In this document: in pieces, positions 55,354-58,975 of the stretch
Position numbering within the stretch: the first letter of the stretch is position 1
Layout: each line of letters starts with the position of its first letter
Source: an uncultured Gemmatimonadales bacterium
Lineage (GTDB): Bacteria > Gemmatimonadota > Gemmatimonadetes > Gemmatimonadales > Gemmatimonadaceae
Assembly (NCBI GenBank): GCA_963701965.1
Contig: OY969695.1
Location: forward strand, 3,520,001 to 3,584,000
Direction: 5' to 3'
Length of the DNA stretch: 64,000 nt
The notes under the pieces: model-generated
Told to the model about the DNA's origin: nothing
Databases searched by the model: none
What the model saw: only the letters and a program-made list of their open reading frames with translations
Program-made: the position numbers and the translations under genes

Positions 55354-57879
55354 TCAAGTAGGATCCGCGGGTTGCAACAGCAGTTCGAAGGGCGCATATC
55401 CGTGAAGGGGATCGAATGCCTGATCCGTATGCAATGTTAGATCATAGGGCCGCCCTTCGCCAAACGACACGCGCAGGAACTGGACGGCCTGATCGCGCTG
55501 GCCAAGTTGCGCCGCGATCCGGGCCCGCTGGTAGGTGTTGCCACCGAACCGATAGGGGCGGTCCATGGCCGCCAACGCCGAGTCGCGCCGGGCCGCCTCG
55601 GCGCGGTCGCCGCGCCGCGCGGCCGACACCCCGAGCGCGCCGAGCGCCTCAATGTCGCTCGAAGGATCGGCGGCGAGCGCGAGCCAGATCGAGTCGGCGG
55701 CGGCCGGATGTCCCGACGCGTCCAGTGCCTCGGCGAGCCCGCTCCGCTCCAGCGGCCGCGCGCGTTCGGCCGCGGGTCGCGCCTCGTACCACCCGACCGC
55801 GCGCGTGGCGAATCCGCCGGCGACGGCGCCGTGCCCGTGGGCCCGGAGTTCCTCATACGCCAGCAGCATGAGCCGCCCGGCGTTCATCGTATCGCTCGGC
55901 GCCAACGGCGCACTCTCCTCGACCCGCGCCGTCAACTCATCGACCCGACCCAACGCCGCCAGCGCCCGGACCTCGGCCGAGAGGACGCGCCACGCGGTCG
56001 GGAACCGCGCGCGCCCCTCGCGCACGACCGCCAACTCGGCGCAATGGTCGCCCAGCAGGTGGTACGCCGCCGCCGGAAACTGCCAGTAGCCGTCCCACCC
56101 CTTCATCCAGCCCCGGTCGACGTCGACCTGCCGAAACGCGGCCAAGGCCGCGTGGGGGTGATCGAGCGCCAGCTCGAAATAGCCCACATCCAAGAGACCC
56201 TCACCCCCCGGCGCCGCCTCCACCATCTGATGCGCCGTGCGGACCGCCGCCGGCCAATCGCCGTGAATCTGGGCGATGGAGTTGTCCAGAAACCACCGAT
56301 CGAACGGCGCCAGACGCGCGCGCGACGCCCCCAGCCGGCCAATCAGCGAGTCGGCGCCGGCATACTCGTGCATCGTGAGATACGCGTCGACCGCCCACAG
56401 CAGCGGCTGCACGTAGGTCGTGTCCAGCGCCGTCGCCCGCAGATAGTGGGCGATCGCCTCGCGTTTTTCTCCACGGCCGTGCAGGTCGAGGCCGGTCACG
56501 AACTCCTGATAGGCCGCGTACGTGGGTGGGGACGTCGCCCGCTGTATCCAGTCGCTCAGGCGCGGATTGTAGAGGAGCGCCAGCGCGCCGGTCACGTGCT
56601 CGCGGAGTCGGTCGACCGCGATCAGCGGCGCCCGCACCGGACCGCTGACCGGATCCACCCCGCGCAGCACCCGGCCCGCCCGGGCGTCGGAGATCTGCGC
56701 CTGGAACCGCAGGGAGTCCCCGTCGCGATAGTACGATCCCCAGACGACCGTGCCCGCTCCCGTCTGCTCGGCCAACGCGCGGACCGTGCGGGGCGTCGAT
56801 GCGCCGCCCGTCAGCATCGCCGTCCGCGCGTCCACGACGTCGACGAGGCCGGTCTCGGCGAGGCGCTGCGTCACCCAGTCCGCCGCCATTCGACCCACGG
56901 GGTTGAGCGCGGTATCGCCCGTGTTGTTCTCGAATGGCGCGACGAGCACACGATTGGCGACGAGCACAGGCTGCCGCGATTGTCGCCAGGCCACCGCCAG
57001 GATCACTCCCACACCGACCACGGTGAGCGCCGCGATGAGCCCCCATCCGATGTGACGCCGCGGCGGTTTCGCCGCCGCCGGCACACTGGCGCTGACCCGA
57101 TCGCTCGCGCGGCCGCTGGATCGCGGTGCTGGCGTCAGGCGCTTGGGTGGGGCCAGCACCTCGGCGGGAGCCTCGCGCAGCTGGGTGGCGAAGGCCGTGA
57201 TCGAGGAGTCCGGCGGGACGTCGAGCTCCTGGCGGAGCAGCGTCTCGTACACCCGCGCGTGCTGCAGGGCTGCGGACCGGTCGCCCGAAGCGGCGAGCGA
57301 CCGCATGAGGTCGAGCGCCACGCCCGCGTCGAGGGGATCGACCGAGGCCAATCGCCGGAACCACCCGGCCTCGGCGCGACGGTCGCCGCGATCCTTGGCC
57401 TCAGACGCCAGCATCCGCAGCGACCGGCGGTACCGCTCGGCGAGATGGGTGCGCTCTTCCTCGGCCCAGCGCTCGAACTCCGGCGCGTCGCTCAGATAGA
57501 ACCCGTCGAGAAACGGCCCCCGGTAGATGGCGACAGCGCGCTCGTACTCCTGTCGCCCGATCGCGGCATGGAACTCGGCGAGATCCGTCGTGATGGCGTC
57601 CGGATTCAGGCGGAGGTCGGTCGTGCCGAGCACCAGATCGTCGCGTCCCAAATCCCGGCGCAGGGTGTAGACCGTCTGCGCCAACACGCGCCGCGCCTTC
57701 TCCTCGTCGCTGTCGGCCCACAGCTGTTGGATCAGCTTGGCGCGCGGGACCGCGCGCTCCCCCGCCCCCGCCAGCATGGCGAGCAGGGCCAAGGGACGCC
57801 GTTGCGCGGCAGCGCCGCCCAGACCCTCGGACGCCTCACGATCAATCGACAGGCCGCCAAACGTGCGAAGCCGTAGCAT
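55354..57879 (-). CDS. Membrane-anchored SARP/BTAD regulator with TolB-N-like and TPR C-terminus
   Basis: LRLRTFGGL, LW.DS, YRGPFLDGF..FERW, DPLD; TM IGWGLIAALTVVGVGVILAVAW; VLVAPFEN.TGD. Confidence 0.85.
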   Translation of the reverse strand: MLRLRTFGGLSIDREASEGLGGAAAQRRPLALLAMLAGAGERAVPRAKLIQQLWADSDEEKARRVLAQTVYTLRRDLGRDDLVLGTTDLRLNPDAITTDLAEFHAAIGRQEYERAVAIYRGPFLDGFYLSDAPEFERWAEEERTHLAERYRRSLRMLASEAKDRGDRRAEAGWFRRLASVDPLDAGVALDLMRSLAASGDRSAALQHARVYETLLRQELDVPPDSSITAFATQLREAPAEVLAPPKRLTPAPRSSGRASDRVSASVPAAAKPPRRHIGWGLIAALTVVGVGVILAVAWRQSRQPVLVANRVLVAPFENNTGDTALNPVGRMAADWVTQRLAETGLVDVVDARTAMLTGGASTPRTVRALAEQTGAGTVVWGSYYRDGDSLRFQAQISDARAGRVLRGVDPVSGPVRAPLIAVDRLREHVTGALALLYNPRLSDWIQRATSPPTYAAYQEFVTGLDLHGRGEKREAIAHYLRATALDTTYVQPLLWAVDAYLTMHEYAGADSLIGRLGASRARLAPFDRWFLDNSIAQIHGDWPAAVRTAHQMVEAAPGGEGLLDVGYFELALDHPHAALAAFRQVDVDRGWMKGWDGYWQFPAAAYHLLGDHCAELAVVREGRARFPTAWRVLSAEVRALAALGRVDELTARVEESAPLAPSDTMNAGRLMLLAYEELRAHGHGAVAGGFATRAVGWYEARPAAERARPLERSGLAEALDASGHPAAADSIWLALAADPSSDIEALGALGVSAARRGDRAEAARRDSALAAMDRPYRFGGNTYQRARIAAQLGQRDQAVQFLRVSFGEGRPYDLTLHTDQAFDPLHGYAPFELLLQPADPT

Positions 57880-57882
57880 GGC

Positions 57883-57912
57883 TTGACAAGTTACAACGCA
57901 GCGGCCTACTCT
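57883..57912 (+). promoter_or_regulatory. Sigma70-type promoter of the Cys leader
   Basis: TTGACA (57883-57888), 18 bp, TACTCT (57907-57912); ATG 5 nt downstream. Confidence 0.75.
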
Positions 57913-57917
57913 CCGAC

Positions 57918-58001
57918 ATGCATTGCGCTGTCACCATGCTGTGTTGTGCCCGTTGCGCCGCCGCCGTCAGGCGGTCGGGCGTGCTGGCGCGCAACGTGTG
58001 A
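57918..58001 (+). CDS. Cys-rich leader peptide (27 aa) MHCAVTMLCCARCAAAVRRSGVLARNV
   Basis: 4 Cys in first 13 codons; lies between promoter and terminator upstream of a sulfurtransferase. Confidence 0.75.
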   Translation: MHCAVTMLCCARCAAAVRRSGVLARNV

Positions 58002-58030
58002 CGGACTGACACGATCCGCGATGGACCCCC

Positions 58031-58061
58031 GGCCGCTCTCAAACGAGCGGCCCTTTTTTTT
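58031..58061 (+). terminator. Intrinsic terminator (attenuator) upstream of sulfurtransferase
   Basis: GGCCGCTC-tcaaac-GAGCGGCC stem then C and T8. Confidence 0.88.
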
Positions 58062-58078
58062 CACTGGAGCCTGCCGTC

Positions 58079-58975
58079 ATGTCGAGTACACTCACCGCTG
58101 AACCGGATGTCGCCAAGAAGGGGTATGTGCATCCCGAGGTGCTGGTCACGACCGCGTGGCTGGCCGAGCACCTGAACGATCCCAAGCTCCGCGTGCTGGA
58201 GAGCGACGAGGATGTCCTGCTCTATGACACCGGCCATATCCCGGGCGCACAGAAGATCGACTGGCACCACGACCTGAACGATCAGGTCGTCCGCGACTAT
58301 ATCTCGTCCGCGCAGTTCGAGGCGCTGCTCCGCCGCCTCGGCATCGACGAGACGACACCGGTCGTCTACTACGGCGACAAGAACAACTGGTGGGCGACGT
58401 ACGCGTTCTGGGTCTTCAAGCTCTTTGGCTTCGAGAATGTCCGCGTGCTCGATGGCGGACGGGCCAAGTGGGAAGCCGAAGGACGGCCGATGGTGACCGA
58501 CAAGAAGGCCTTTCCGCCGACGTCGTACAAGGCGCCCCAACGCTCCGACGGCAAGATTCGGGCGTTCATCGACGATGTGAAGAAGCACCTCGCGGCCCAT
58601 GGGAAGCTCGTGGACGTGCGCTCGCCGCAGGAGTACACGGGCGAGAAGATCCACATGCCCGACTACCCGCAAGAGGGCACGCTGCGCGGCGGGCACATCC
58701 CGACGGCCAAGAGCGTCCCCTGGGCGCGGGCGGCCAACGCCGACGGCACGTTCAAGTCCGCCGACGATCTACGCGCGATCTACGAAAAGGAGCAGGGCCT
58801 CGCCAAGACCGATGACGTCATCGCCTACTGCCGCATTGGCGAGCGGTCGTCGCACACGTGGTTCGTCCTCACCTACCTGCTCGGCTACGACCGCGTGCGC
58901 AACTACGACGGCAGCTGGACGGAGTGGGGGAACGCGGTGCGGGCGCCCATCGAGAAAGGCACCGGCACGCCGTGA
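58079..58975 (+). CDS. Two-domain rhodanese / thiosulfate sulfurtransferase (CysA2/SseA type)
   Basis: GHIPGA, LDGGR.KW, VDVRS..EY.G, active loop [17 protein letters not shown]. Confidence 0.95.

Follow-up and report, generated by a model that had tools for sequence, protein, structure and literature searches.

How is the rhodanese gene at this locus controlled, and does the short Cys-rich open reading frame (ORF) in front of it take part? Between positions 57883 and 58079, the window (the whole stretch of 64,000 nucleotides that was analysed) carries two promoter-like hexamers, a short ORF with four Cys codons, and a terminator-like hairpin. The original prediction was an attenuator in which ribosomes stalling at Cys codons permit read-through when cysteine is scarce. 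This reading gains support from several kinds of sequence evidence, namely the Cys codons, the distance between promoter and ATG, the spacing of the antiterminator, and a codon identity that matches the pathway of the controlled gene. We regard the element as very probably a leaderless, ribosome-mediated, cysteine-sensing transcription attenuator. Its parts are listed in Table 1.

Table 1. Coordinates of the leader element and of the two genes downstream (positions of the window).
Feature	Position	Strand	Basis or remark
-35 hexamer TTGACA	57883..57888	+	read in sequence
-10 hexamer TACTCT	57907..57912	+	18-nt spacer after TTGACA; 5 nt before ATG 57918
Leader ORF, 27 aa	57918..58001	+	Cys at codons 3, 9, 10, 13; Met codon 7
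Probable sensory Cys cluster, codons 9, 10, 13	57942..57956	+	Cys-to-antiterminator spacing
Protector segment CCGCC	57961..57965	+	predicted partner 57970-74 (ribosome absent or at stop codon)
Antiterminator segment	57970..57979	+	core GCGGTC; most homologues GCGGCC
Antiterminator target, overlaps terminator 5' arm	58028..58037	+	
Intrinsic terminator-like hairpin (58031-58052) and T8 (58054-58061)	58031..58061	+	
Shine-Dalgarno-like GGAG of rhodanese, outside terminator	58066..58069	+	
Two-domain rhodanese / thiosulfate sulfurtransferase, SseA-CysA type, CRIGER loop, 298 aa	58079..58975	+	Pfam Rhodanese
Class I/II aminotransferase, overlaps rhodanese stop codon	58972..60156	+	

The individual parts are present as originally described. 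The promoter hexamers with their spacing, the ATG and the ORF with its Cys codons were all recovered, as was the terminator, whose stem (58031-38/58045-52) consists of 8 pairs, 7 of them G-C, followed by one C and then by a T8 run that ends 17 nt upstream of the rhodanese ATG. The 9-nt pairing between antiterminator and terminator, with one G-U, is likewise present and yields a duplex of -18.0 kcal/mol, compared to -16.2 kcal/mol for the terminator arms. Two further hairpins had been proposed to lock the antiterminator upstream. Both exist, but the helix 57951-58/57989-96 merely encloses the antiterminator and does not pair with it, and the protector is only partly conserved.

Taken alone, the sequence of the window is not beyond chance: the fold of the whole leader is no better than that of shuffled sequences (z -1.18), the 9-mer GCGGYCGGG is a common word (14 occurrences in the window versus 10.3 expected), and a consensus promoter scanner lists 0 promoters in the leader region, TTGACA/TACTCT included. 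A search of positions 57700-58200 against Rfam gave two chance matches only (E 4-5) and no riboswitch, T-box or known leader; the leader peptide has no NCBIfam match up to E=10, a weak test for a query of 27 aa. What places the element beyond chance is its conservation in relatives. Two alternative ORFs, of 28 aa from TTG 57923 and of 72 aa from TTG 57883, were set aside, as homologues keep the in-frame Cys-rich ORF.

The gene downstream encodes a rhodanese whose nearest named relatives are Gemmatimonadota, mostly Gemmatimonadaceae. Its best PDB matches are 1UAR, 8K55, 3P3A and 3HZU, with mycobacterial SseA/CysA proteins among the closest, and CRIGER is a motif of thiosulfate sulfurtransferases (PMC6856128). 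The aminotransferase is likely co-transcribed with it. The pair is found in 3 of the 7 leader loci checked in the family (L001, L006 and L009, not L002-L005), and in two relatives homologues of the aminotransferase (55-61% identity) have a Met-type leader of their own. We considered that rhodanese and aminotransferase might together degrade cysteine, which would reverse the regulatory logic. This possibility is disfavoured because the pair occurs in merely 3 of the 7 loci and because homologues of the aminotransferase are elsewhere under Met-type or SAM control. At a number of other loci (L008, L010-L022, L025, L150, L151, L162, L178, L179) the rhodanese is followed by genes that resemble OsmC, SufU or SufE, neighbours pointing to sulfur-transfer partners.

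Conservation was assessed upstream of 128 orthologous rhodanese genes, comprising 28 of the first 30 loci (two distant paralogues were dropped) and 100 of the 135 further matches listed; the 35 left out were 20 from the same family, mostly of genera already sampled, and the 15 ranked lowest. A family-type terminator, defined solely by its arms and T-tail (a definition that replaced a looser, over-calling scan), is found upstream of 42 of the 128 genes and is missing in 86, the latter including one locus from the unpublished genome G012. The short leader ORFs at the 42 terminator loci contain at least two Cys in 36 cases and one Cys in two, with four probable false calls; the terminator pattern as such has about five (L083, L095, L103, L109, L126), of which L083 is counted within the 36. 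The comparison of orthologous upstream regions bears out the expected conservation of Cys codons. Short ORFs with a Cys cluster occur at 34 of the 42 terminator loci versus 17 of the 86 others, counts that are not independent tests since the genomes are related.

The same bias is seen when leaders are chosen by promoter distance only, which yields 29 loci, 23 of them with a terminator. Cys then accounts for 67 of 540 residues (12.4%), as opposed to 4.0% when the other two frames are read and 0.68% proteome-wide, an 18-fold in-frame enrichment, and at least two Cys are present in 22 of the 23. Among the leader Cys codons, TGT is used in 66 of 105 cases versus 19% genome-wide; the genome has one tRNA-Cys(GCA). 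Leader length ranges from 16 to 36 aa, Cys spacing and the remaining residues vary freely, and the peptides diverge except for Cys, Met and the antiterminator-encoding codons. A Cys leader with terminator before a rhodanese gene was also found in three Chloroflexota, one Longimicrobium and one Cellvibrionaceae-labelled record (80 loci, 16 viewed in detail). At two loci, L188 and L179, the Cys leader begins right after the stop codon of the upstream gene, giving a candidate intra-operon attenuator, with a terminator in L188 and none clear in L179. We take this upstream gene to resemble sufD.

The position of the promoter-like site suggests a leaderless start. In 23 orthologous loci with the terminator, TTGAC precedes the leader start by 33-38 nt, and TA at the -10 offset is kept in most homologues. 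Where the leader is missing, as in two loci, the rhodanese ATG itself sits at this promoter distance. Of 164 promoter-like sites in the genome of the window, 11 are followed by a long ORF whose ATG is 35-37 nt from TTGAC, forming a peak of start codons. Because the loci without a leader and this peak share the same distance, a leaderless start of the leader ORF is likely; in the window, transcription is predicted to begin at or near 57918. Some members of the sister family, in which the gap between promoter and ATG is longer, are probably not leaderless. On the opposite strand, a divergent gene for a BTAD-domain regulator (55354-57879, -) has its start codon merely 38 nt from the leader ATG and a TAACTT hexamer 8 nt before its start, an arrangement that suggests overlapping back-to-back leaderless promoters in 57879-57918. 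A reverse-strand ATG occurs at the same offset in L002-L005, where the upstream sequence is different.

The antiterminator keeps its distance from the Cys codons and not from the start. Counted from the first nucleotide of the final Cys codon to the antiterminator core in 14 homologues of the same family, this distance is 17 nt in nine, 14 nt in three, 20 nt in one and 26 nt in one; it therefore falls within 14-20 nt in 13 of the 14, with 17 nt in the window. Its standard deviation is 2.9 nt, as against 11.8 nt when the distance is taken from the start. On its 3' side, a stalled ribosome extends approximately 12 nt beyond the A site. The antiterminator core is hence positioned just outside the footprint of a ribosome waiting at the last Cys codon.

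The original prediction had proposed folding with and without a ribosome footprint, and the outcome depends on the RNA considered. When the fold is restricted to RNA available before the 3' arm of the terminator is made and the ribosome is masked, the antiterminator has a probability of 0.00 without a ribosome, 0.43-0.56 with the ribosome at Cys9 or Cys10, 1.00 at Cys13, and again 0.00 at codon 18 and onward up to the stop codon. Averaged over 13 homologues of the family, it is 0.96 with the ribosome at the last Cys and 0.26 once the ribosome has moved five codons on. A stall at Cys13 is thus predicted to free the antiterminator in the pre-terminator RNA, whereas in the full transcript the terminator has a probability of at least 0.80 at every ribosome position. 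As equilibrium favours the terminator, switching has to be kinetic; in the full-transcript model the terminator likewise dominates in this genome's leaders of the His, Phe and Thr types. Once 5' RNA enters the fold, a clean on/off switch is obtained in only 6 of 14 homologues, and the antiterminator beats shuffled sequences (p<=0.05) in only 14 of 36 leaders, being weak in the sister family. The protector pairs with a probability of approximately 0.8 (0.82) in both states in the window; with the ribosome at the stop codon, the protector hairpin reaches at least 0.67 in 8 of 14 homologues, 0.34 in one, and at most 0.11 in five.

Covarying stems, which had been anticipated in relatives, were not found. 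The helices are nearly invariant instead: covariation counts for the antiterminator and terminator helices do not exceed those of shuffled alignments, and covariation lends no support because the helix cores are nearly constant. The terminator helix is paired in 92% of cells of alignment A1, in whose antiterminator columns L108 and L118 are out of register. Some antiterminator substitutions change the peptide (Pro/Ser, Arg/Trp) yet keep the pairing via G-U, and the comparison of cognate with non-cognate antiterminator duplexes gave p=0.055. A DNA pattern of Cys-Cys, antiterminator and 5' arm, searched in 401 genomes of the family, was abandoned as its matches were no commoner than those of a reversed control; three matches (G273, G623, G690) nonetheless led to leaders of cys operons. 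One metatranscriptome run contained 5% of the words, its contigs covering the conserved coding part only and leaving the leader uncovered, and is uninformative either way.

The dominance of the terminator at equilibrium, together with the commonness of the 9-nt complement, would also fit a constitutive terminator that ends an unregulated short transcript, with leaky termination or another promoter accounting for rhodanese expression and with Cys codons that are incidental. The 18-fold enrichment of in-frame Cys, the fixed spacing between Cys and antiterminator and the match between codons and pathway argue against this, as do the mere 17 nt between T8 and ATG, a region with no promoter by scan, and we judge an unregulated terminator to be very unlikely.

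The preferred reading, cysteine-sensing attenuation, would operate as follows. Transcription would start at approximately the A of the leader ATG, where a ribosome would load. With ample cysteine, the ribosome would pass through or past 57970-79, this segment would be either covered or held in a short upstream hairpin, and the terminator would form. With low Cys-tRNA, the ribosome would stall at codon 9, 10 or 13 and cover the protector segment; 57970-79, just outside the footprint, could then pair with 58028-37 before the 3' arm is made, and the polymerase would continue. Read-through into the rhodanese, and probably the aminotransferase, would thus take place only when charged tRNA-Cys is scarce. 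The family and gene neighbours of the rhodanese suggest that it would provide sulfane sulfur for the synthesis of cysteine or Fe-S clusters.

We note that the comparisons with published systems given here are based on partial texts of the cited papers. Similar to classical attenuators (trp, his, pheA, thr, leu, ilv; mechanism summarised in 10.1101/834739), the element consists of a short ORF rich in one amino acid and an antiterminator that competes for the 5' arm of an intrinsic terminator. Its GGCC-type three-way repeat resembles the gGCC-rGCy-GGCC triples of trp attenuators in Corynebacterium and Streptomyces (PMC1262725). Unlike classical attenuators, it is predicted to sense cysteine and to be leaderless, it would control a sulfurtransferase and in relatives genes of sulfate assimilation, and it is found in Gemmatimonadota. 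A close counterpart in architecture, described as a prediction only, is uORFC-8-2 of Rhodobacterales, where a Cys uORF and an intrinsic terminator precede cysS (Brewer et al. 2021, PMC8632094). Tandem Cys codons, an intrinsic terminator and a proposed read-through upon shortage of Cys-tRNA are shared. Compared by its description, uORFC-8-2 differs in occurring only before cysS and in Alphaproteobacteria, in the dominance of UGC (UGU here) and in having its Cys codons in the first stem. The leader Deide_16409 of Deinococcus deserti, also before cysS, has a mapped leaderless start and a proposed role in transcription attenuation (De Groot et al., PMC4007540). It shares the leaderless start (here predicted) and two adjacent Cys codons, but encodes only 10 aa, and the part of that paper available has neither an analysis of terminator and antiterminator for it nor a rhodanese leader among the 14 listed. 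Actinobacteria possess Cys leaders without a conserved terminator (Seliverstov et al., PMC1262725, available in part).

A further counterpart is found in mycobacteria, where leaderless poly-Cys sORFs (Ms5788A and the Cys ribulon) exert their effect on translation, by sequestering a Shine-Dalgarno sequence (Canestrari et al., 10.1101/834739, available in part). Common to both are the leaderless Cys-rich sORF (here predicted), several sulfur loci per genome and a CRIGER-type rhodanese (CysA2), whereas the mycobacterial sORFs control translation rather than termination and carry up to eight Cys in a run at the 3' end. By analogy, the leader in the window might mask the rhodanese ribosome-binding site, the hairpin being secondary, and this mechanism has been demonstrated for leaderless poly-Cys ORFs before an operon with CysA2 (10.1101/834739, same partial text). 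Here, the GGAG lies outside the hairpin; in predicted folds its pairing is 0.62-0.73 in all states, of which pairing with the leader ORF makes up at most 0.19 in any state, and the G-C hairpin and its T-rich tail are conserved in homologues. Translational attenuation of this type is therefore very unlikely.

The cysteine-sensing transcription attenuator, as we continue to read the element, has to be set against earlier reports, the architecture having been thought possibly novel. In the papers surveyed, with most subscription journals outside the survey, no experimental demonstration of a cysteine-sensing transcription attenuator was found, since the case tested in mycobacteria acts on translation and those before cysS are predicted only; likewise, no paper was found that treats Gemmatimonadota and attenuation together. 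Lopatovskaya, Seliverstov and Lyubetsky are said to have carried out a comparative study of attenuators. The available parts of PMC2965389, PMC13236596, PMC8079986 and PMC11109978 add no Cys transcription attenuator. The lineage is thus apparently undescribed, but the combination of Cys uORF and intrinsic terminator is not new, as it was already predicted before cysS (PMC8632094, available in part). Apparently new are the phylum and the target genes, not the architecture. As the principle is that of textbooks, the surprise is moderate; a compact element with a clear antiterminator makes a good test case.

Two further readings concern what the leader senses. Cys clusters can bind metals. The nascent Cys-rich peptide might accordingly read a signal itself (metal, thiol-redox state or ligand-induced arrest) or act in trans, the ribosome controlling termination for a reason other than shortage of Cys-tRNA. 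An Arg-Pro-Gly-like stretch that follows the Cys cluster in the same register in many homologues would be compatible with this reading, but the stretch corresponds to the antiterminator sequence and is found in Tyr- and Met-type leaders as well. Leader length, Cys spacing and the other residues are all free to vary and the downstream targets are cysteine-supply genes, such that sensing at the level of the peptide appears unlikely.

The other reading is a refinement compatible with sensing of Cys-tRNA: the leader may in addition sense methionine, via the Met codon just before the Cys cluster. Internal Met accounts for 4.3% of leader residues versus 1.8% in the proteome, a Met lies at most 4 codons before a Cys in 16 of 35 leaders, and the leader of homologue L035 has one Cys and two Met. 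The same scaffold also occurs with Met-rich leaders before thrC-like, panB and aminotransferase genes. The close homologues L002-L005, however, lack an internal Met, a ribosome at codon 7 gives an antiterminator probability of merely 0.5 (full-RNA fold), and internal ATGs may be alternative starts. We consider a joint sensing of methionine possible but rather doubtful.

Similar leaders exist elsewhere in the genome of the window. Locus L211 (5434-5511, -) consists of a second Cys leader with terminator before a gene of the nitrite/sulfite-reductase family; the leader is kept in four of 15 relatives examined, and in most others the gene lies within an operon. The start of this reductase-family gene is apparently frameshifted in the assembly compared to relatives. 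Locus L212 (264-359) groups a third leader, of Cys/Met type, with a promoter-like site and a terminator ahead of the gene for a TonB-dependent receptor that might import a sulfur compound; this receptor has one weak homologue among five congeners. Leaders rich in His, Phe and Thr, each with a terminator, precede hisG (L213, 200-292), the gene for prephenate dehydratase (L214, ~149-223) and the gene for homoserine dehydrogenase (L215, 198-278), respectively, and by virtue of these the genome seems to make wide use of attenuation. Inspection of cysS, three genes for PLP enzymes and two other rhodanese genes of this genome revealed no Cys leader in front of them.

A covariance model built from 16 homologues and searched in 150 genomes of the family gave 49 matches in 36 genomes, nine of which are training loci. 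From the 40 non-training matches, 36 were examined for leader and downstream gene; one further match beyond these is a Cys leader at a rhodanese locus. The largest class, 19 of the 36, precedes sulfur-related genes: nine rhodaneses, cysK, cysG, cysH, a ThiS-type carrier, hemD, two SBP56, TauE and two osmC-led clusters. Both clusters hold a NirA/Sir-family reductase, and one also holds cysD, cysC, cysH and a CysN-like ORF. Leaders of this class have at least two Cys in 17 cases and one Cys in one, the frame being ambiguous in one. A second class consists of 5 matches with leaders rich in His, Tyr/Phe or Leu before hisG (two, one of them assigned by sequence resemblance only), prephenate dehydratase (pheA), DAHP synthase and a leuC-like gene. 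A third class comprises 5 matches with Met-type leaders before two thrC-like genes, one panB and two aminotransferase genes. Another 2 matches have Cys/Met leaders before genes without a family match, and 5 have no convincing leader. As the covariance model contains the Cys-codon sequence, Cys matches are favoured, and the non-Cys matches are therefore the informative control. The Met-rich leaders (L304 before panB; L310 and L314, thrC-like; L323 and L328, aminotransferase) are candidate methionine-sensing attenuators, unexpectedly with one before panB; none was found before panB in L312. The Cys-rich leaders of L325 and L326 precede SBP56 (selenium-binding protein family) genes and tie SBP56 to sulfur supply.

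In eight genomes of the family (loci L308, L313, L316, L317, L318, L319, L328 and L330) a SAM-II aptamer (RF00521, above gathering score) is located upstream of the attenuator. It follows a TTGAC promoter-like site and lies approximately 200-290 nt before the attenuator terminator (seven loci computed), and in seven of the eight loci it is succeeded by a hairpin and a U-rich run. The genes concerned are cys operons, cysG, cysH, a ThiS-type carrier, rhodanese and aminotransferase. A search of 20 homologous loci against Rfam gave two SAM-II aptamers upstream of the element as sole matches. Stacking of this kind could form a two-input gate. No tandem of SAM-II and attenuator is evident in titles and abstracts of the literature surveyed, and the stacking is the less expected part of our results.

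On balance, we incline to the view that the element in the window is a node of a cysteine regulon of Gemmatimonadota run by attenuation, with an interchangeable scaffold that carries Cys, Met, His, Tyr/Phe or Leu sensor codons. Its Cys versions would control rhodanese, cysK, cysG, sulfate-assimilation operons, TauE and SBP56, and some would follow a SAM-II riboswitch that has a terminator of its own, the gate opening only when SAM and Cys-tRNA are both low. This regulon-wide view is the more novel lead. The element in the window hints at the way sulfur metabolism is regulated in a phylum that has received little study, and it marks SseA-type rhodaneses, together with some genes for TauE, SBP56 and TonB receptors, as functions of cysteine supply. 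At two of the loci, L315 and L318, the Cys-rich frame and the frame of the antiterminator differ across a long run of GC dinucleotides, pointing to either a slip in the assembly or a Met-rich leader.
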